Shown piece by piece: positions 17,841 through 32,952 of a DNA stretch of 64,000 bases. The translations under genes were made by a program, and so were the position numbers. This DNA comes from an uncultured Gemmatimonadales bacterium (lineage in GTDB: Bacteria > Gemmatimonadota > Gemmatimonadetes > Gemmatimonadales > GWC2-71-9): positions 224,264-288,263 of the forward strand of contig CAWGVP010000003.1 in assembly GCA_963826065.1 (NCBI GenBank). Direction: 5' to 3'. How positions within the stretch are numbered: position 1 is the first letter of the stretch; each line of letters opens with the position of its first letter. Under the pieces are notes generated by a model. That model made no database searches. It saw only the letters and a list, made by a program, of their open reading frames with translations, and was not told the DNA's origin.

Positions 17841-18212
17841 ATGTTCCCGCCCATGCCCGGGACCGGAGCCGGTAACTACGCCAGGATCTACGCGGTCGTC
17901 CGCCGCATACCCCGCGGCCGGGTCGCCACCTACGGTCAGATCGCGGAGCTGGCCGGCCTGCCCGGCCATGCGCGCCAGGTCGGTTACGCGCTCCACGCGT
18001 TGCCGGAGGGCAGCACCGTGCCGTGGCACCGGGTGCTGAACGCGCGGGGGACGCTGAGCCTGCGCCGCGATTCCGGGGCCGAGATCTCCCAGCGCATTCG
18101 CCTGGAGCAGGAGGGCATCCGCTTCGACGCCGGCAGCCGGGTGGCGCTCGGCCGGCTGCAATGGCGGCCCGCCCGCCGGAAGGTTCCCCGCAGACCAAGG
18201 GCGGTCGCGTGA
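17841..18212 (+). CDS. Alkyltransferase-like protein (Atl/YbaZ, MGMT family)
   Basis: IPRGRVATYGQIA, ARQVG, PWHRV (Trp in place of the catalytic Cys). Confidence 0.88.
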   Translation: MFPPMPGTGAGNYARIYAVVRRIPRGRVATYGQIAELAGLPGHARQVGYALHALPEGSTVPWHRVLNARGTLSLRRDSGAEISQRIRLEQEGIRFDAGSRVALGRLQWRPARRKVPRRPRAVA

Positions 18213-19114
18213 TCATCCACATCCTCGGTGTCCCCATGGATCTGGGCTCCGGCCGCCGGGGCGTGGACATGGGCCCGTCGGCGATCCGGATCGCCGGGCT
18301 CGCCGACCGGCTGACGGAGCTGGGTCACAAGGTGGTGGACGAGGGCGACGTCGGCATCAGGAACATGGAGGCTCTGAAGGTGGGCGACATCAGGGCGCGG
18401 TATCTGGCGGAGATCGCCCGCGCGTCGCGCCTGGTCGCGGGGAAGGTCGAGCGGATCGTCGGCAAGGGTCATTTCCCGCTGGTGCTCGGCGGCGATCACT
18501 CGATCTCGGTGGGAACCGTGTCGGCCATCGCGGGGGCGGCGCGGCGGGAAGGGAAGAAGGTGGGTCTTCTCTGGGTGGACGCCCACGGCGACATCAACAC
18601 GCCGGAGACATCGCCCTCGGGGAACATCCACGGCATGCCCGTCGCCGCGCTGTTGGGCGAAGGGCCGCCCGAGCTGACCTCGATCGGAGGGGAGGGTCCC
18701 AAGGTAGACGCACGCAACGTCGCCATGGTGGCGATCCGGAGCCTGGACGAGGGCGAGAAGGTCCGGCTGAAGCGGTACGGGGTGGAAGTGCACACCATGT
18801 CGGAGGTGGATCGGGCCGGGATCGACCAGGTGATGAAGCAGGCACTGGCCCGGGTGTCGGACGGCACCGACCGGGTGCACGTGAGCTTCGACCTCGACGC
18901 CGTGGATCCCACCGTCGCGCCGGGGGTCGGAACGCCGGTCAAGGGAGGGCTCGACTACCGCGAGGCCCACCTGCTGATGGAGATGCTCTCGGATTCCGGA
19001 GTGATGACGTCGCTGGAAGTGGTGGAGGCCAACCCCATCCTCGACGACCGGAACGCCTCCGCGACGTTCGCGGTCGAGCTGGTGCAGTCGGCGTTCGGGA
19101 AGCGGATTCTCTGA
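18209..19114 (+). CDS. rocF: Arginase
   Basis: GVDMGP, GGDHS, DAHGD, SGNIHGMP, SFDLD, EANPILD. Confidence 0.92.
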   Translation: MIIHILGVPMDLGSGRRGVDMGPSAIRIAGLADRLTELGHKVVDEGDVGIRNMEALKVGDIRARYLAEIARASRLVAGKVERIVGKGHFPLVLGGDHSISVGTVSAIAGAARREGKKVGLLWVDAHGDINTPETSPSGNIHGMPVAALLGEGPPELTSIGGEGPKVDARNVAMVAIRSLDEGEKVRLKRYGVEVHTMSEVDRAGIDQVMKQALARVSDGTDRVHVSFDLDAVDPTVAPGVGTPVKGGLDYREAHLLMEMLSDSGVMTSLEVVEANPILDDRNASATFAVELVQSAFGKRIL

Positions 19115-24175: not shown

Positions 24176-25279
24176 ATGGCCGACTCCATCCGTGACCTGT
24201 TCTTCGGCACGCCGGCCAACGAGCTGGTCGAGGCCATCGAGCCGCGGCGGACGTTCGACGACGTGGTGTTGCCGGAGACTACCCTGCGGTCGCTGAACCA
24301 CGCGCTCGCGTTGGTGCGGAAGCACGATCTCATCTTCCGCCAGTGGGGGCTGGCGGAGCGGCACTCGAGCGGGCTGGGGCTGGCGTTCCATTTCGCTGGA
24401 CCGCCGGGAACCGGGAAGACCATCTGCGCGGAGGCGCTGGCTTATGCGCTGGACCAGCGGCTGCTCGTGGTGCGCTACTCGGAGCTGGAGTCGCGCTGGG
24501 TGGGGCAGACGGCGAAGCACGTCGCCACCGTGTTCCGCGCCGCGGAGCGGCAGAACGCGGTGCTGTTCTTCGACGAGGCCGACGCGATCGCCGGCCGCCG
24601 CTTCACCTCGCTGAGCGCGGCCTACGAGCGCGAGGCCAACGCGATCGTCAACGTCCTGCTGCACGAGCTGGAGAGCTTCGACGGGGTGGTCATCTTCGCC
24701 ACCAACCTCGCCGCCAACATCGACCCCGCGTTCGAGCGGCGGATCCGCACCCACATCCTGTTCGACATGCCCAACGCGGAGGAGCGGGAGCGGATCTGGC
24801 GGGTCCAGCTCCACGCCCGGAAGACACCGCTGGCGGACGACGTCGACTTCAAGACGCTGGCGGAGCGCTATCCCCGGAGCGGCGGCGACATCAAGAACGC
24901 CGTGCTGAAGGCCGCCCAGATCGCGACTACGGAGCCGGGACCGGACGTGGAAAAGCGAATTCACCAGCGGCACTTCGTGCAGGGCATGGAGGAGGTGCTG
25001 GCGGCGGAGGGCGTGATGTCACAGTCGCTCTTCGACCCGCCGGCGGCGGTGTCGCAGGCCGGCGGTGTGCTGGAGCAGATGATGGAGGGACAGGACCAGC
25101 TCCGCGGGGAGCTGGGGCTGGTGGCGGAGAAGCTCGAGCGGCTGGAGAGCGGCCAGGCCAAGGCGAGAGAGGCGCTGCTGCAGCTGGAGCGGCGGGAGCC
25201 GTCGCGCGTGCCGGTGTACGTCGCCATCGGCGTGGCGGTCGCGGCGCTGCTGCTCGCGGGGGCGGCTCACATCCTATAG
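24176..25279 (+). CDS. AAA+ ATPase with C-terminal coiled coil and TM tail
   Basis: Walker A GPPGTGKT, Walker B LFFDEAD, ATN…DPAFERR; hydrophobic C-terminus. Confidence 0.88.
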   Translation: MADSIRDLFFGTPANELVEAIEPRRTFDDVVLPETTLRSLNHALALVRKHDLIFRQWGLAERHSSGLGLAFHFAGPPGTGKTICAEALAYALDQRLLVVRYSELESRWVGQTAKHVATVFRAAERQNAVLFFDEADAIAGRRFTSLSAAYEREANAIVNVLLHELESFDGVVIFATNLAANIDPAFERRIRTHILFDMPNAEERERIWRVQLHARKTPLADDVDFKTLAERYPRSGGDIKNAVLKAAQIATTEPGPDVEKRIHQRHFVQGMEEVLAAEGVMSQSLFDPPAAVSQAGGVLEQMMEGQDQLRGELGLVAEKLERLESGQAKAREALLQLERREPSRVPVYVAIGVAVAALLLAGAAHIL

Positions 25280-26164
25280 CCCCGGCCACCTCGACCGCCG
25301 CTCCAGATGCACGTCTTCGCTCCGCACGTTCCGCCCCACCATCACCACCAGCAGCCGTGACTGATACCCCTTCGCGCTGACCCGAACGTACTGCGTCCGG
25401 CAATTGTCCATCAGCGAAAGGTCGAAGCGGAATCGGTACTCCCCCTGGTTGTCGGTGAAGGTGACGTACGGCGTGCCGAGCATCTGGAGATGCGCGCCGG
25501 CCAGCGGCCTGCCACCCTCCTGCTGGAAGATCCTGCCGACCACCGTCGCGTACTGCACCGGCGCGGCCGAGTCGGGCGGCGGCGTGGGCTTGGGCACGCA
25601 CTTGTCCGGCTGCTCGGGGATGTACGACTCCATCGGCCGGACCGCCCGCGGGCCGGCACCCGGCTGGGTCGCCACGCGCCGCCGCCCGAAGATTCTGAGC
25701 GCCTCCGACTCCATCGTCGGTGCCGCGGCGCGCGGTGCCTCCCGCGGCGCCTCCGCCGGGGCGTCCTCCGCCGACGCCCCCTCGGGCTCTTCGGCCTCCT
25801 CCCCTTCGCGCCGTAGGGCCTCGGGTGGCGCGTTGGCACGGTCCTCGGGCTCGGGCTGGTTCTCCGGCGGCGGGGGCGCACGCCGCTCCGGAGGTGGGGG
25901 CGGTGGCTCGGGTTGGGGCGGCGGCGCCGGAGGCGGCTCCGGTGGCGGTGGCGGTGACTGGGGAGGCGGCGGTGGCAGATAGATCATTTCCACCTGCCTT
26001 GTCGGCTCCCGCCGCCGCTCCGGCTCGCCTTCGTCCGGGGCCGGCTCCCGAGTAGACAGCACCACCGCGAGCACGATCACCGCCGTGTGAACCGCGGCGC
26101 TGGTCGCGAGCGAGCTCCAGGACGGACGCTGTTTGGGGAGCAGAACCGGGGGCGGCTGTGACAA
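25274..26164 (-). CDS. TonB-like Pro-rich membrane-anchored protein with carboxypeptidase-regulatory-like C-terminal domain
   Basis: TM helix with SAAVH, poly-Pro linker, VVGRI…PLAGA…TDNQGEYRF. Confidence 0.7.
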   Translation of the reverse strand: MSQPPPVLLPKQRPSWSSLATSAAVHTAVIVLAVVLSTREPAPDEGEPERRREPTRQVEMIYLPPPPPQSPPPPPEPPPAPPPQPEPPPPPPERRAPPPPENQPEPEDRANAPPEALRREGEEAEEPEGASAEDAPAEAPREAPRAAAPTMESEALRIFGRRRVATQPGAGPRAVRPMESYIPEQPDKCVPKPTPPPDSAAPVQYATVVGRIFQQEGGRPLAGAHLQMLGTPYVTFTDNQGEYRFRFDLSLMDNCRTQYVRVSAKGYQSRLLVVMVGRNVRSEDVHLERRSRWPGL

Positions 26165-26223: not shown

Positions 26224-26247
26224 GTCATCCTCCCGCCTCAGGATGAC
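26224..26247. repeat. Internally deleted GTC-tagged repeat, copy 2
   Basis: GTCATCCT-cccgcctc-AGGATGAC; overlaps the stop codon of the CphA-like gene. Confidence 0.55.
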
Positions 26248-27971
26248 GCCCGGCCGGGCGGCAGCGCCTCCCCAGCCTTCCACCCCCCGTCCCGCAGCCC
26301 CTCCAGCATCTCCAGCACCCCCCGGCGATCCTGGTGCAGCGTCAGCACCAGCAGGTCCCCCGGCCGAGCCCAGCCGAGCGCCTCGCGCACTGCCGGGATC
26401 TCGGTGCCGGGCGTGGAGATCGCGGTCTCCGGCAGTCCCGCCCGGCGGAGCTCGTCCGCCATCAGGCTGGGCACTTCGCCCGGCGCGCGCCCCCGCAGGT
26501 AGGCATCCATCTCCTTCACCACGACCCGGTCCGGACGCAACGCGAGCGCGGCTCGTGCCAGCTCGCGGATCGCCTGGTCGTCGCGGTCGCCGGCCTGGCC
26601 GATCATGACCAGCCGCCGCTCGGACGGCAGGCGGTCGAGGGTCGCGGCGAGTGCCGCCATCCCGTGCGGGTTGTGGGCGTAGTCCACCACGACCCGGAGG
26701 CCGCCGATCTCGTAGACATTCGCCCGGCCGGGATTGTCCGCCGGGTCGCGGCCGAACCGGCGCAGTGTAGTCCGCACCGCGTCGAGCGGGATGCCCAGGC
26801 CCGTCGCCGCCGCGATCGCCGCGAGGGCGTTGGCCACGTTGTGCCGCGCCGCGCCACCGGCCGCCAAGGGCATCTCCTCCACCCGGGCGACGGCCTCGCG
26901 TCCCTCCCCGGTGAGGACCACGAGCTCGTTCCCGTCGGCGACCACCGCCGTCCCGCCCGATGTGGTGTGCCGGCGAACCACCGCGTTGCCGGCGTCGAGC
27001 GAGAACCAGACGATCGGCGACGCGATCGCGGTCGACGACTCCACCAGCACGGCGTCGTCCGCGTTGAGCACCAGCCGGCCGTCGGGTCCGATGGCCCGGG
27101 CCACCAGCAGCTTCGTCTCCGCCAGCTGCCGAAGGTTCTGCACGCCGAACTCACCCAGATGGTCCGCCGCGATGTTGGTGACGACGGCGACATCGGCCCG
27201 CTCGACCGTGAGCCCCCGCCGCAACAGGCCTCCGCGGGCAGTCTCGAGGATCGCGGTGTCGACCTCGCCCCGGCGCAGTGCCAGCCTGGCACCCTCGGGC
27301 CCCGAGTAGTCGCCCTCCGCGACCCGCTCGCCCCGGACGAAGACGCCCTCGGTCGAGGTGACGCCGGTGACCCGTCCCGCCTCCGTCGCCATGGCCGCCA
27401 TCAGTCGAACGACCGTCGTCTTCCCGTTCGACCCGGTGACCAGCGCGACCGGGATCTCGTGGGCCCGCGACCACGGGACCCGCCCCGGTTCGGGGAGGTC
27501 GCGCGCCGGCCAGCAGAGCACGCCGGTGCCCGCACCCGCCGAGACCAGGTCCTCGCCGCTCAGAAAGGTGAGTCCGCGCGAGCGGGCGGCGATCCGGATG
27601 GCCAGCAGGCGGGGGTCCCGCTCCTCGGCGATCGCCTGCCGCAGCCGCTCCGCCGCGGCCTCGAACTCCGGCGCCGGCCGGCGGCTCAGCGCCGCCTCGG
27701 CGGCGGTCCAGGCCCACTCGTTGAGGTCGGTGGCCGAGTAGAGGGAATCCGGCGGGGCGGTGATGGCGAGACTCGCGCCGCCCTCGAAGCGGCGGGCGAC
27801 GAGGCGCTCGTCGCTCCAACCCACGGCGCCGAGCATCCGGGTGGCGGCGTCCCACCACGCGGCGATGGCCTCGTCTCGCCGGTCGTCCGCGACCTCGACG
27901 TCGGCCACGGCGCCGGGACGGTCGAGGACCAGGCCCGGGCCGGTGAGGCGCCTGGAGTCGAGTAGCCTCAT
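26238..27971 (-). CDS. Cyanophycin synthetase-like Mur-ligase protein (N plus M domains, no ATP-grasp)
   Basis: N-terminus MRLLDSRRLTGP resembles CphA; VTGSNGKTT, ETARGG, DHLG, NADD, PGR, DYAHN, GDR. Confidence 0.85.
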   Translation of the reverse strand: MRLLDSRRLTGPGLVLDRPGAVADVEVADDRRDEAIAAWWDAATRMLGAVGWSDERLVARRFEGGASLAITAPPDSLYSATDLNEWAWTAAEAALSRRPAPEFEAAAERLRQAIAEERDPRLLAIRIAARSRGLTFLSGEDLVSAGAGTGVLCWPARDLPEPGRVPWSRAHEIPVALVTGSNGKTTVVRLMAAMATEAGRVTGVTSTEGVFVRGERVAEGDYSGPEGARLALRRGEVDTAILETARGGLLRRGLTVERADVAVVTNIAADHLGEFGVQNLRQLAETKLLVARAIGPDGRLVLNADDAVLVESSTAIASPIVWFSLDAGNAVVRRHTTSGGTAVVADGNELVVLTGEGREAVARVEEMPLAAGGAARHNVANALAAIAAATGLGIPLDAVRTTLRRFGRDPADNPGRANVYEIGGLRVVVDYAHNPHGMAALAATLDRLPSERRLVMIGQAGDRDDQAIRELARAALALRPDRVVVKEMDAYLRGRAPGEVPSLMADELRRAGLPETAISTPGTEIPAVREALGWARPGDLLVLTLHQDRRGVLEMLEGLRDGGWKAGEALPPGRASS

Positions 27972-27979
27972 GTCAAGGA

Positions 27980-30778
27980 CTAATCGTCCGCCTCTCTCGC
28001 CCGGGGGAGTCGCACCCCCCGCACGTCGCGAACGAACTCCTTCCGACGCTCCGCCGGCACCAGCTCCTGCGCGACCGCCAGCGCCGGCTCCGGCCGCGAC
28101 ACCCGGGGCGCCCACTCCACCGGCCGCGCGGCGTCGGGGCGGAACTGGATGACCTGCTTCCAGCTCCGGGTGATCGCGTCGCCGAAGATCAGCACCAGGT
28201 CGCCCGCCTGCGCTTCCCGGAGCGCGGCATCCACCGCGGCCTGCTCGTCGGGAATCACGGCGATCTGCTCCCGCGGCGTGCCGTGCTCCAGCAGCGCGTC
28301 GCGCAGGAGAATGGGAACCTCGTCCGGCTCGCGTCCCCGGAGCTGGTCGTCGCGGCGGCAGATGTAGTACTCGAACCGGTTGGCCGCGATGCGCCCGATG
28401 TCCTTGATGTCCTCGTCACGGCGGTCACCCGGAGCGGCGAGCACGCAGATCCGCCGCCCGGCGACCTCGAGCCGCTCGACGAGATCGCACATCGCCTCCA
28501 CCGCCGCCGGATTGTGGCCGTAGTCGAGGATCACCTTGAACGGGTGCTCGTCGTAGATGTTCATCCGGCCCGGCGCCTGGAAGAACGTGGTGTCGAAGGT
28601 CCGGAGCCCGTGGCGGATGTCTTCCAGCTTGAGCCCCATGCTGAACGCCATCGCCGCGGCGAACATAGCGTTCTGCACGTTGTGCATCGCCCGGCCCTCG
28701 AGCGTCGCCGGGATCAGGTGGGTCCAGAGCAGCGGGATATGGGCGCCCTTGTCGTAGATGGTGATCATCTGGCCCTTGATCCCCGACTCCAGCACCAGGC
28801 CCCGCCCGCCCGCCTTGATGTGCTCGCCCACCAGCTCGTGGGTCGGGTCCATGGTCACGTAGCACAGGTGCTCGGCCTGGGTGTAGTCGGCCATCTTGAG
28901 GCAGAGCGGGTCGTCGGCGTTGAGCACCGCCGTGTCGCGGGCGATCTCCACCACGATCCGCTTCACCTGCGCCAGCTGCTCCAGCGTACCGATCCCGCGG
29001 AGCCCGAGGTGATCCGACTTCACGTTGAGCACCGCGCCCACGTCGCAGTGCCGGACGCCCATGCCGGCCCGGAGCAGGCCGCCGCGCGCCACCTCCAGCA
29101 CCGCGACGTCCACCGACGGATCGCCCAGTACCATCCGAGTCGCCACCGGGCCGGTCATGTCGCCGGCGACGGTGCGCTGGCCGTCGATGTACACGCCGTC
29201 GGTCGACGTGAGTCCCACGTGGTGGCCGGCCAGCTTCTCGATGTGGGCCAGCATCCGCGCCGTGGTGGTCTTGCCGTTGGTTCCCGTGACGGCGGCGATC
29301 GGAATCCGGCTCGGCGTACCGGGCGGAAAGAGCATGTCGATGACCGGACCGGCGACGTCGCGCGGACGGCCCTCGCTCGGCGCCATGTGCATCCGGAATC
29401 CGGGGGCGGCGTTGATCTCGCAGATCGCGCCCCCCACTTCCTTGTAGGACTCGGTGATGTCGGTGGAGAGGAAGTCCACCCCACCCACGTCGAGCCCGAT
29501 GGCCTTCACCGCGCGGGTGGCCATCTCGGCGTTGTCGGGGTGGACCACGTCGGTGAGGTCGGTGGCGGTCCCGCCGGTGGAGAGGTTGCCGGTGGAGCGG
29601 AGGAAGACTTGCTCGCCCGCGGCGGGCACCGACTGCCGGGTGTAGCCCTTCCGCTCCAGCATCGTCTCGGCCTGGTGATCGAAGTCGAGTCGGGTGAGCA
29701 CCTTCTCGTGGCCGATGCCGCGCCGCGGGTCCTGGTTCACCGCCTCGACCAGCTCCTCGATGGTGTGCACCCCGTCGCCCACCACGTGGCCGGGCACCCG
29801 CTTCGAGACCGCCACCAGCCGGCCGTCGATCACCAGCATCCGGTGGTCGTCGCCGCTGATGAAGGTCTCCACGATGACGCTGCGGCTGTGCTCCCGGGCC
29901 ACGTGGAACGCGGCCCGCACCTCCTCCGGCGTGGTGATGTGGATGGTGATCCCCCGGCCGTGGTTCGCGTTGAAGGGCTTCACCACCACCGGGTATCCGA
30001 TCGCCTCGGCCGCCTCCACGGCGTCCTCCGCGCCCTGGACCAGTCGCTGCCTTGGCACCGGGAGGCCGAGGTTGGCGAGGATGCGGTTGGTCTCCTCCTT
30101 GTCGGAGGCGAGCTCCACCGCGATGTGGGAGGTGCGGCCGGTGACCGTCGCCTGGATCCGCTGCTGGTAGCGCCCGTGCCCGAACTGGATCAGGCTCTGC
30201 TCGCTGACCCGGATCCAGGGGATCTTCCGCTCTTCCGCGGCACGCACCAGCGACATCGTGCTGGGACCCAGATGCCGACGCTGGGCGTAGCGGATGAACT
30301 CGTCCCGCTCCGCGGCGAAGTCGAAGTCCCGCGGCACCGCGCCCTCGGGCCTGAGCTCGGCGGGGAGCAGCGAGTGGAGCAGCATCAGCCCCAGTCGGCC
30401 CGCCTCGAGCCCCACGTCTTCCTGTTCGTACTGATAGATGACGTGGTACTGGCCGGTGGCGCCGTGGGAGCGCGTCTTCCCGAAGGTGACCGGCTCACCC
30501 GCCACGTTCTGGAGCTCGATGGCCACGTGCTCCAGGATGTGCCCCATCCAGGTGCCGTCGTCCTCCGTCAGCCGCCGGATGAAACCGCCCGGCTTGCCGT
30601 AGGAGCAGGTATGCTCCTGCAGGCCAGGCAGCGCCGCCACCAGCCCGTCGGTGAACCCGCGGCCCAGCTTGACCGACGGCCAGCTCTCCAGCTCGCCCAG
30701 GTCCACGTCGAGACGGATGACCGGAAAGTGCGCATAGAGGCTGGGGCCGACGTAGACGGCCTTGTCGAGAATACGCAT
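27980..30778 (-). CDS. cphA: Cyanophycin synthetase
   Basis: Own AAGGAG RBS; HILEH N domain, LGPST, ATP-grasp VVKP…NHGRG, NLSTGG, EINAAPG; M domain TGTNGKTT. Confidence 0.96.
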   Translation of the reverse strand: MRILDKAVYVGPSLYAHFPVIRLDVDLGELESWPSVKLGRGFTDGLVAALPGLQEHTCSYGKPGGFIRRLTEDDGTWMGHILEHVAIELQNVAGEPVTFGKTRSHGATGQYHVIYQYEQEDVGLEAGRLGLMLLHSLLPAELRPEGAVPRDFDFAAERDEFIRYAQRRHLGPSTMSLVRAAEERKIPWIRVSEQSLIQFGHGRYQQRIQATVTGRTSHIAVELASDKEETNRILANLGLPVPRQRLVQGAEDAVEAAEAIGYPVVVKPFNANHGRGITIHITTPEEVRAAFHVAREHSRSVIVETFISGDDHRMLVIDGRLVAVSKRVPGHVVGDGVHTIEELVEAVNQDPRRGIGHEKVLTRLDFDHQAETMLERKGYTRQSVPAAGEQVFLRSTGNLSTGGTATDLTDVVHPDNAEMATRAVKAIGLDVGGVDFLSTDITESYKEVGGAICEINAAPGFRMHMAPSEGRPRDVAGPVIDMLFPPGTPSRIPIAAVTGTNGKTTTARMLAHIEKLAGHHVGLTSTDGVYIDGQRTVAGDMTGPVATRMVLGDPSVDVAVLEVARGGLLRAGMGVRHCDVGAVLNVKSDHLGLRGIGTLEQLAQVKRIVVEIARDTAVLNADDPLCLKMADYTQAEHLCYVTMDPTHELVGEHIKAGGRGLVLESGIKGQMITIYDKGAHIPLLWTHLIPATLEGRAMHNVQNAMFAAAMAFSMGLKLEDIRHGLRTFDTTFFQAPGRMNIYDEHPFKVILDYGHNPAAVEAMCDLVERLEVAGRRICVLAAPGDRRDEDIKDIGRIAANRFEYYICRRDDQLRGREPDEVPILLRDALLEHGTPREQIAVIPDEQAAVDAALREAQAGDLVLIFGDAITRSWKQVIQFRPDAARPVEWAPRVSRPEPALAVAQELVPAERRKEFVRDVRGVRLPRAREADD

Positions 30779-30801: not shown

Positions 30802-31620
30802 CTACCGCTTCGCAATCACCGGCGGCGCCGTCGCCACTCTGCTGTGCAGGTTGAACGTGGACCCTTCGTTCAGGATGTGCAGCCGCAGGCCGATCAGACA
30901 GACCGGATCGTTCTTGCGCACTTTCGCCATGGAGGAGAACTCGAGCTCCGAGGGGTCCACGATGGTGAGCGCCCCGCTGCCCACCACCTCCAGCGTCTCG
31001 TCCGGCCCGATGAACCCGGCCGTGTTCTCGTCCAGCCCGATCCCGACGGCGAACGGATTGTACGCCAGGGCCGTGAGCAGCCTGCCCAGGCGATCGCGCT
31101 GTCGGAAATGTTGGTCGATGATGACGCGGTTGGTAAGACCCAGTCCCGGGGCGAGGGTCACGATCTTGGTCCGGGGGGAGGCGCCCTCGCGGCCGAAGGC
31201 GATCATGTGCTCGCAGAGGAAGGCGGCGCCGGCGGAGGTGCCGGCCACGTGCACCCCCTCGCTGTTCCGGCGGCGCAGCGCCTTGGCGACCTGGGTGCCG
31301 CCGATCATGGTGCTGAGCCGGAGCTGATTGCCGCCGGTGAGGAAGACACCCTCCACCTCGTCCAGCACGTCGAGCCACTCCCGGCGCTCGCAGTCGGCCC
31401 GGCTCGCGATCGGAAGCGAGCGCGCGACCTTCACGCCCAGGGAGTGGAACAGCTCCTCGTATCGCCCGCCGGTCTCGGCCAGCTCGGATGCGGTCGGGAT
31501 GATGGCGATCCGGCTGTCCTTGCCGCCGCAGAGCTGAGCGAACCGCCGCAGGATCGCGACGTCGCCGATCTTCTCCTCGGCGCCGCCCACCGGCACGATG
31601 TACCCTCGGGTTCCTGCCAC
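30802..31620 (-). CDS. cphB: Cyanophycinase
   Basis: GGAEEK, IPTAS, TGGNQLRL, GTSAG nucleophile, DQHF, GLDENT. Confidence 0.95.
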   Translation of the reverse strand: MAGTRGYIVPVGGAEEKIGDVAILRRFAQLCGGKDSRIAIIPTASELAETGGRYEELFHSLGVKVARSLPIASRADCERREWLDVLDEVEGVFLTGGNQLRLSTMIGGTQVAKALRRRNSEGVHVAGTSAGAAFLCEHMIAFGREGASPRTKIVTLAPGLGLTNRVIIDQHFRQRDRLGRLLTALAYNPFAVGIGLDENTAGFIGPDETLEVVGSGALTIVDPSELEFSSMAKVRKNDPVCLIGLRLHILNEGSTFNLHSRVATAPPVIAKR

Positions 31621-31678
31621 CCGCTCCCTCCGCTGGAAGTTGAGCGCCGGGGAAAATACACGATTCGGGGGACCCGGC

Positions 31679-31784
31679 GTCATCCCGAGCGCAGCGAGGG
31701 ATCGGCCGGCTCATGAGCGTGAGCATCGGAGGTATCCCTACTCACTCGCTTGCCGGGCCGATCCCTCGCTGCGCTCGGGATGAC
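31679..31784. repeat. GTC-tagged palindromic repeat, copy 3 (long form)
   Basis: GTCATCCCGAGCGCAGCGAGGGATCGGCC…GGCCGATCCCTCGCTGCGCTCGGGATGAC. Confidence 0.85.
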
Positions 31785-31794
31785 CAGCGCCTGC

Positions 31795-32952
31795 CTACTC
31801 GAACGTCCCCCGTACCACTGCCTGCCCCCCCTGTACGTGCCAGCGTCCCCGGGCCATCACGTCCGACACGGCGCCCGTCTCGTCGAGCACCACCACGTCC
31901 GCGTCCGCGCCCACCGCCAGACGTCCCTTGCGCGGGAGCATCAGCACCCGCGCCGGATTCGCGGTGAACGCCGGCAGTACCCGCTCGAGCGGCTGGCCGG
32001 CGGCGAGCAGCTCGCGGAGTGCCCCGCCCACGGCCGCCGGCTCCCCGACGCCCATGTCCACCACTCGTCCCTCCCCGTCGAACACCGGGAAGCAGCCGCC
32101 GCCGTCGGAGCTTAGGGTGACCCGCTCCGCCGGCAGGCCGGCGTCGAGGTAGCGGACCAGGGCATCGGGCGCGCTCCACGCGTCCTCACCGGGCTCGACC
32201 GGAAATGCGGTGAGATCGATGGTGCACCCCCGCTGCGCGAGGGCGATGGCCTCGTCGAAGAGCCCGCGGCGGCGGTTGACGTGGGTAGGATGGAAGACCG
32301 CGGCGGGGATCTCGCTGTGGTCGAGCGCGTCGCGGATCGGCGCCAGGCCGCGGGCGCCGTCGCCCACGTGCAGATGGAGGAGCCCCGCTTTGCCGCTCAT
32401 CAGCCCGCCCACGTGCACGTCGCCCGCGACTCGCAGCAGCTCGTTCCGCGTGGGCTGGCTGGACCGGTGATCGCTGATCGCCAGCTCGCCGACGCCGAGC
32501 ACCAGGTCGATCAGCACCAGGTCCCGCCGCACGTCGCCGGTGACGGTCGCGGGCGGGACGTGGTATCCGCCGGTGAGGCAGTAGGCGGTGAGGCCCTCCA
32601 TCGTGAGGCCGCGCGCCACCGTGACCAGCTCCGCCGGCGTCCGGATGGCGTCGTCGGTGCCCAGCACCCCGACCGCCGTCGTCACGCCGCCCCGGGTCAG
32701 CCGGCTCAGCGCCACCGGCGGCACCCGGGTGTGCGGGCCGGCCTCGCCCCCGCCGCCGGTGAGGTGCACGTGGCAGTCGATGAGTCCGGGGACGACCCGC
32801 CGGCCCTCGAGATCGCGCTCGTGGGCAAGGCCGCGTGGGAGCGAGGGCTTCTCGGCGCCGATCCAGACGACGGTTTCCCCCGCCACGAGCAGATGGGCCC
32901 GGCCGCGGGGCGAGGGGTCGTAGAGGTCGGCGTTCAGAAGGAGGGAGAGCAT
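31795..32952 (-). CDS. iadA: Isoaspartyl dipeptidase (beta-aspartyl peptidase)
   Basis: HVHLTGGGGEAG, GVLGTD, GELAISDHRSS, HLHVGDG, PTHVNR, SSDG. Confidence 0.93.
   Translation of the reverse strand: MLSLLLNADLYDPSPRGRAHLLVAGETVVWIGAEKPSLPRGLAHERDLEGRRVVPGLIDCHVHLTGGGGEAGPHTRVPPVALSRLTRGGVTTAVGVLGTDDAIRTPAELVTVARGLTMEGLTAYCLTGGYHVPPATVTGDVRRDLVLIDLVLGVGELAISDHRSSQPTRNELLRVAGDVHVGGLMSGKAGLLHLHVGDGARGLAPIRDALDHSEIPAAVFHPTHVNRRRGLFDEAIALAQRGCTIDLTAFPVEPGEDAWSAPDALVRYLDAGLPAERVTLSSDGGGCFPVFDGEGRVVDMGVGEPAAVGGALRELLAAGQPLERVLPAFTANPARVLMLPRKGRLAVGADADVVVLDETGAVSDVMARGRWHVQGGQAVVRGTFE

Follow-up and report, generated by a model that had tools for sequence, protein, structure and literature searches.

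The locus described here raises the question of what a cyanophycin synthetase paralogue does when it lacks the ATP-grasp core and is encoded directly behind a complete synthetase. In the window, i.e., the whole stretch of 64,000 nucleotides that was analysed, the gene order on the minus strand is iadA-cphB-cphA-X, where X denotes the paralogue. The isoaspartyl dipeptidase gene iadA (31795..32952, minus strand, 385 aa) reaches 399.6 bits with TIGR01975 (cut-off 331.25) and the cyanophycinase gene cphB (30802..31683, minus, 293 aa) 258.5 bits with TIGR02069 (cut-off 126.6). The cphA gene (27980..30778, minus, 932 aa, starting with MRILDKAVYVGP) encodes a complete cyanophycin synthetase 1 (TIGR02068, 1146.6 bits, cut-off 850) with an N domain carrying the Cys/HxxEH motif, an ATP-grasp (G) domain and a Mur-ligase-like (M) domain. 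X (26238..27971, minus, 577 aa, starting with MRLLDSRRLTGP) begins 8 nt behind the cphA stop, exactly as given in the original prediction. A tblastn search of the genome (G000, 93% complete) returned one cphA and one X, and a scan for promoters and terminators found none. A contig of run X6, which may be the source sample, covers 27034-28201 without gaps.

The nearest named relatives of X are found in Gemmatimonadales, and the relatives carry the database label 'Mur ligase family protein'. Other frequent labels on family members are 'cyanophycin synthetase' and 'UDP-N-acetylmuramyl tripeptide synthase', and such mislabelled members could inflate cphA counts. In the cyanophycin literature consulted, two types of synthetase are known, CphA1, which carries out both reactions, and CphA2, which makes the backbone only. 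The architecture of X was not described in the cyanophycin literature searched, where an earlier mention in supplements, the 2007 genome survey, the 2021 structure paper or the 2023 review is possible. The family is widespread and, within this scope, apparently uncharacterised, in line with what had been assumed.

Pfam assigns only Mur_ligase_M (residues 178-389; 89 bits, gathering threshold 24) and Mur_ligase_C (415-543; 56.2 bits, threshold 28.4) to X. None of the ATP-grasp families of Pfam matched X, whereas cphA matches seven ATP-grasp-type models, and PF18921 also gave no match in X. With TIGR02068 it reaches 386 bits and thus stays below the cut-off of 850. In BLASTP, X 173-543 and CphA 492-864 are 37% identical (E 9e-68). 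The extent of the deletion was measured between the shared Gly of SAGAG/QFGHG (X G148, CphA G202) and the IP.A..TG strand (X I173, CphA I492). Between these anchors X has 25 residues and CphA 290, so that a net 265 aa are missing, close to the roughly 270 aa estimated before. X contains the P-loop as well as ETARGG, DHLG and DYAHN, and no HxxEH occurs in the first 170 residues, both of which agree with the original prediction; only one of 88 family ORFs has an HxxEH there. The primer-making site Cx19HxxEH is found in about 80% of CphA1. This zinc site, described for the CphA1 N domain (PMC9262961), is absent from the X sequence.

Four parts of X can be distinguished. The N domain (27621..27971, minus; approximately residues 1-117) has the CphA N-domain fold without Cx19HxxEH, is about 52 aa shorter than that of CphA and contains the conserved residues R7, R8, G11, W39, D75, L77 and E85. 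It is followed by a stub of the G-core (27507..27620, minus; approximately residues 118-155), a helix and a beta-hairpin matching CphA residues ~170-206, in which G146 and G148 are 98-99% conserved. The earlier claim that the entire ATP-grasp domain is missing therefore holds for the ATP-grasp core and not for this remnant. The M core (26748..27455, minus; approximately residues 173-408) contains the P-loop GSNGKTT (180-186), T207, E243, R246, D270-H271 and K287 as well as the family-specific R252. The M lid (26289..26747, minus; approximately residues 409-561) keeps R416, D430, H433, G461-D462-R463 and R493-G494-R495, and N413, Y491 and H546 are specific to the family. This layout, N domain, G-core helix and hairpin, linker and then M, fits an internal excision.

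At the sequence level the N-terminal part is hard to relate to CphA. With hhalign the stub gave a weak E of 0.014, and the N-domain comparison was not significant, so that a comparison of structures was needed. The X model, built on a 96-row alignment, has a mean pLDDT of 94.6, and CphA1 structures rank first in Foldseek (TM-score of 0.82 on the query to 7WAE). VIA-align placed 406 residues of model 1-414 on TeCphA1 1-724 (2.9 A, Z 39) and 550-553 of all 577 model residues on SuCphA1. From these superpositions, which extend over N domain, G-core stub and M domain, X is predicted to keep the arrangement of N domain and M core of CphA1. In CphA1 the polymer is held between N domain and M core. 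When residues 1-171 were folded alone, the top nine Foldseek rows were all CphA1 or CphA2, with 182-211 alignment columns. A wide search with the N-terminal model gave CphA2 as best match (Z 10.2, rmsd 5.0, 164 aligned), followed by AbCphA1 (Z 7.5, rmsd 5.1, 164 aligned, chain range 2-484), a row only just above unrelated folds; in an atlas search with residues 1-170 every score was <0.9, so that its rows are no more than a lead. The parallel between the starts of X and CphA, which had been noticed by eye, is weak by sequence and clear by predicted structure. A complex prediction of CphA 1-590 with X 1-408 gave a score of 0.00 and a mark of 0.32, which speaks neither for nor against a contact between the two.

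In comparison to known systems, X shares with CphA1 (TIGR02068; 7LG5, 7WAE, 7LGM, 7LGN) the N-domain fold, the arrangement of N and M core, the full M core and lid, and the published ATP, Mg and catalytic residues of the M domain. Unlike CphA1 it has neither the ATP-grasp core (lid, omega loop, catalytic His) nor the Cx19HxxEH site, its lid loops are changed, it forms a separate branch of M domains and it scores below the TIGR02068 cut-off. CphA2 (7TA5, 8FXI) derives from CphA1 and has a single active site and an N domain without catalytic function (PMC10273328). X would share these traits and CphA2 is the wide-search match mentioned above, but in CphA2 the G domain is retained and the P-loop and lid of M are lost, whereas X keeps M and has lost G. 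X belongs neither to CphA1 nor to CphA2, and is predicted to work like the M half of CphA1. In Betaproteobacteria (Cupriavidus, Acidovorax) two adjacent CphA paralogues of unresolved function, CphA/CphA', are described (10.1101/072470; PMC8560796). Both members of the sampled pairs (L088, L090, L092) have G-domain matches, in contrast to X, and genomes with CphA/CphA' often lack cphB (10.1101/072470), whereas X sits together with cphB. Finally, MurE, MurC, MurD, MurF and FolC have the central ATP-binding and C-terminal domains in common with X. The Mur ligases start with a UDP-MurNAc N-terminal domain, which in X is replaced by one of CphA type, and where MurE has the lid motifs DNPR and GKGHE, X reads KEMDAYLRGR and TLHQDR. 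The murE profile gives 103 bits on X (cut-off 257), and the genome encodes its own MurE separate from X.

For an analysis of conservation, a profile-free search with an E limit of 1e-30 gave 1,394 representatives, CphAs included. X was aligned with 132 of the best 150 of these representatives of 50%-identity clusters, all of them full-length (500-650 aa); the remaining 18 were excluded because of their length or incomplete cover. The CphA G region had no match in any of the best 150 of the 1,394. X and CphA1 numbering differ by a constant 315, so that N182, K184, T185, T207, E243, R416 and H433 correspond to TeCphA1 N497, K499, T500, T522, E558, R731 and H748 (PMC9427784). D270/H271 correspond to D585/H586 of SuCphA1, and mutation of these two makes the M domain inactive (PMC9262961). 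X has all eight ATP/catalytic residues published for the M domain, and six of them are 98-100% conserved across the 133 diverse homologues. In these 133 rows K184, E243 and R246 are invariant (100%), N182, R416 and H433 reach 99%, D270 and H271 98%, and positions 185 and 207 are T or S in 100%; a decay of the P-loop is not seen. The dN/dS of X is 0.20-0.26 in three pairwise comparisons with close relatives versus 0.11-0.14 for cphA. The X gene is intact and subject to purifying selection, and its rate of evolution is about twice that of cphA. A pseudogene or an assembly artefact was ruled out by the full-length family, a dN/dS well below 1 and a GC3 of 0.93, and a split gene complementing a defective cphA was ruled out as well, as the partner CphA is complete and X is thus not its missing half.

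The distribution of X was surveyed in four group samples with together 1,053 genomes. Expressed as genomes with X, genomes with any match and genomes scored, the counts are 35/41/151 for the phylum of the window, 5/18/400 for the class of a Woeseiaceae genome, 3/6/301 for the class of a Kordiimonas genome and 12/27/201 for Acidobacteriota. X loci also occur in Planctomycetota and Chloroflexota, and the family is present in at least five phyla. In the synteny survey a CphA-type match lies within ~3 kb of X in all 55 genomes carrying X in the four samples, a number that includes four seed genomes and kin which are not independent. A few of the 55 copies are split or partial (G010, G013, G063, G1006). 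At 68 of 80 X loci a CphA G-domain match was found; of the remaining 12, eight are cut off by a contig edge and four belong to genomes with cphA elsewhere. The only neighbours common across phyla are cphA, cphB and iadA, and in plasmid records of cultured Ruegeria and Shinella the order is cphB-cphA-'Mur ligase family protein'. One genome seemed to have X without cphA (G1028), a case that was rejected as its CphA is split over two overlapping frames.

Every X-bearing genome examined also has a CphA, and high-scoring matches of the X N domain are confined to cyanophycin synthetases. Both speak against an enzyme that acts on an unrelated substrate, or in reverse strips side chains, and merely travels with the cyanophycin genes. 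Such a role would be in agreement with a part of the Chloroflexota data. In a separate sample of 201 Chloroflexota genomes, 26 of 27 matching genomes have two M domains, and the 12 second copies inspected all lack G and score higher with the X profile than with the CphA profile. Eight of these 12 face cphA and four are not linked to it, as could be expected for an unrelated substrate; altogether we regard this role as highly improbable. The Chloroflexota proteins (L115-L124, L127, L128) are divergent, and eight of them carry the motif GGxxLRG or similar with R252 kept and R251 replaced.

Same-strand pairs of cphA and X are tightly spaced, with -5 to +36 nt in 46 of 62 pairs (starts estimated by alignment). 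This would suit a mainly structural or regulatory subunit, which would tune synthesis by joining CphA oligomers via the G-core stub or by coating granules. The G-core, the start of which is kept in X, forms the large dimer interface of CphA1 (PMC9427784), and in one protein (P0176) a CphA M domain is naturally fused to X. However, most of the G-core is absent, the near-invariant catalytic residues point to chemistry, and the G-less relatives in Chloroflexota are convergent with cphA or unlinked, which makes a mainly structural or regulatory role unlikely.

The CphAs at X loci were further inspected for the primer-generating Cys/HxxEH motif, which is present in 67 of 70 ORFs, the other three being without N terminus. 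X could also produce beta-Asp-X dipeptides or a first primer from free aspartate and thereby ease slow first steps, as the first ligations were proposed to be very slow (PMC9262961) and the extra basic residues R7, R8, R229 and R252 could hold a small diacid. We give this little credit, because the CphAs concerned already generate primers, an N domain would be needless for a small substrate, and the minimal CphA1 primer is (beta-Asp-Arg)-Asp and not the dipeptide.

A quick tree was built from 116 M domains, and one of its branches (SH-aLRT 100) splits 56 X rows from 60 CphA rows. The CphAs directly beside X form one clade of 43 rows (support 96), which includes two CphAs from genomes without X match. 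G217 and G440, genomes with partner-clade CphAs, gave no match for X, so X is dispensable for at least some CphAs of this clade. In a second quick tree of 74 rows, with one distant outgroup, all but one of 20 core X rows form a group (99). The base of this tree, where the Chloroflexota forms lie, is not resolved, and at least three changes are required for G-less forms. Three other G-less or G-damaged proteins are nested among CphAs, indicating that G was lost with M retained more than once.

Mur ligases such as MurE use their C-terminal domain to bind the amino acid that is added (10.1101/2022.01.05.475093), and by analogy to MurE the lid pocket of X was mapped. The lids were compared by aligning 133 X rows together with 60 CphA rows, and this alignment has its gaps exactly at the lid loops. 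R416, D430, H433, G461, R463 and RGR are common to X and CphA. Three residues of CphA are missing in X, R787 (100% of 43 partner-clade and 88% of 17 other CphAs), D810 (100% and 65%) and D867 (93% and 71%). X has its own residues instead at H546 (75%), Y491 (69%), N413 (92%) and Q459, and R252 in the core, located like G227 near the acceptor loop, is conserved in 99% of X versus 15% of CphA. The mean acid counts of three lid windows are 2.95 vs 3.72, 1.55 vs 2.18 and 1.55 vs 1.57 for X and CphA, respectively. E/D487 of X (89%) is aligned with the Asp of DNPR in the MurE of the same genome, and therefore a basic amino acid could still bind. We read the lid changes as modestly favouring a substrate other than arginine. 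The original prediction of a ligase for another residue may thus stand on the position-specific changes, but the net lid charge, which differs little, does not speak for it.

Also weighed was an extra arginine (or lysine) ligase, which would fill undecorated Asp or relieve a rate-limiting M step without changing the polymer chemistry. All shared catalytic positions of the M domain are kept, the lid still has D462, D465 and E/D487 with a net charge near that of CphA, and the repeated origin of G-less or G-damaged copies is expected if extra M activity is useful. On the other hand, the core X branch stands apart from all 60 CphA M domains (SH-aLRT 100, first tree), and the fixed R252, N413 and H546 are more divergence than a dosage booster needs. 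Moreover, the related TmCphA1 alone gives high yields in E. coli with 93.9% Arg in the insoluble fraction (10.1101/2023.01.09.523336). We consider the extra arginine ligase as rather unlikely, albeit a serious alternative.

Mur ligases extend peptides at free carboxylates. In agreement with this chemistry X might use a different carboxylate and cap the C terminus of the chain for length control, or lengthen the arginine side chain into a branch. Its acceptor loop is unlike that of the partner clade, with an aromatic residue or Cys at 222 versus Met, G227 and R252. Yet R246 of the acceptor site (Su R561), D221, G224 and P225 are common to X and CphA, and the parts of PMC8560796 that were available do not mention capped or branched polymers; we think that such a reaction is improbable.

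Our preferred reading, for which we see a chance somewhat short of even, is that X is an ATP-dependent ligase working in trans on the free Asp side chain of cyanophycin with an amino acid other than arginine. The non-Arg identity of the incoming amino acid is its least certain part. That X is a ligase acting on the polymer, which comprises this reading, the extra arginine ligase and the use of a different carboxylate, is quite probable. The side-chain-only ligase of the original prediction is kept as a predicted activity, given the domain architecture, the conserved catalytic residues, the purifying selection on X and its occurrence together with cphA. X would bind the polymer made by the neighbouring CphA, phosphorylate the beta-carboxylate of an undecorated Asp with ATP and couple the activated Asp to the incoming amino acid held by the lid. 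As the ATP-grasp core and the zinc motif are absent, neither backbone extension nor primer cutting is expected. The M site of SuCphA1 requires an undecorated C-terminal Asp (PMC9427784), and CphA's own M domain would compete with X for it. The product would be a polymer with mixed side chains and different solubility or N:C content, which a promiscuous IadA could still degrade. CphA1 itself also takes Lys, Orn and citrulline (PMC8560796), so that a second enzyme is less needed.

Tentatively, and with more doubt than the preferred reading itself, X may represent a third class of cyanophycin synthetases and the mirror of CphA2, i.e., a dedicated side-chain ligase giving a chemically different storage polymer in many heterotrophic bacteria. 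This polymer would be a poly-aspartate with a non-arginine side chain or branch, the composition of which is set by a separate enzyme. If true, a conserved side-chain-only type completes the enzyme set and implies a pathway step so far unaccounted for. Should X use another amino acid, the variety of natural cyanophycin would exceed what is assumed, and engineers would have a separate enzyme for tuning the side chains, which govern cyanophycin solubility (PMC8560796).

Several further G-less or otherwise altered copies were observed. L130:2436-4103, L131:4266-6245 and L133:2910-5399 are G-less or G-degenerate CphA copies, which cluster with CphAs and not with X. Variants of CphA in Thermoanaerobaculia (L081:6067-8214, plus; L082:4614-6926, minus; L083; L044) keep N and M and skip approximately residues 244-401 (G lid and omega), so that here a part of the G domain was lost independently; some adjoin X and some also stop early in the M domain. 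In P0176 (972 aa) a CphA M domain is fused in frame to a complete X, and its cluster has two members on contigs of 48 and 84 kb. Among 7,989 candidates, a search with X residues 1-175 found no long fused forms, a result of little weight. In genome G019 a second, distantly related cphA (L084:5740-8508, minus) lies between cphA and X in opposite orientation. At least two full CphA genes are present in some Acidobacteriota (L012, L049, L057, L063, G894, G904, G910), and some of the extra genes are convergent with X or located near iadA.

In the window, an arginase gene (18209-19114, plus) lies ~7 kb from X. Arginase is present at 13 of 80 related loci, all from Gemmatimonadales, and therefore probably reflects lineage synteny. 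Directly downstream of X (25274-26164, minus) a proline-rich, TonB/TolA-like protein with a weak carboxypeptidase-regulatory-like domain is encoded, and this neighbour is retained in 32 of the 80 loci.
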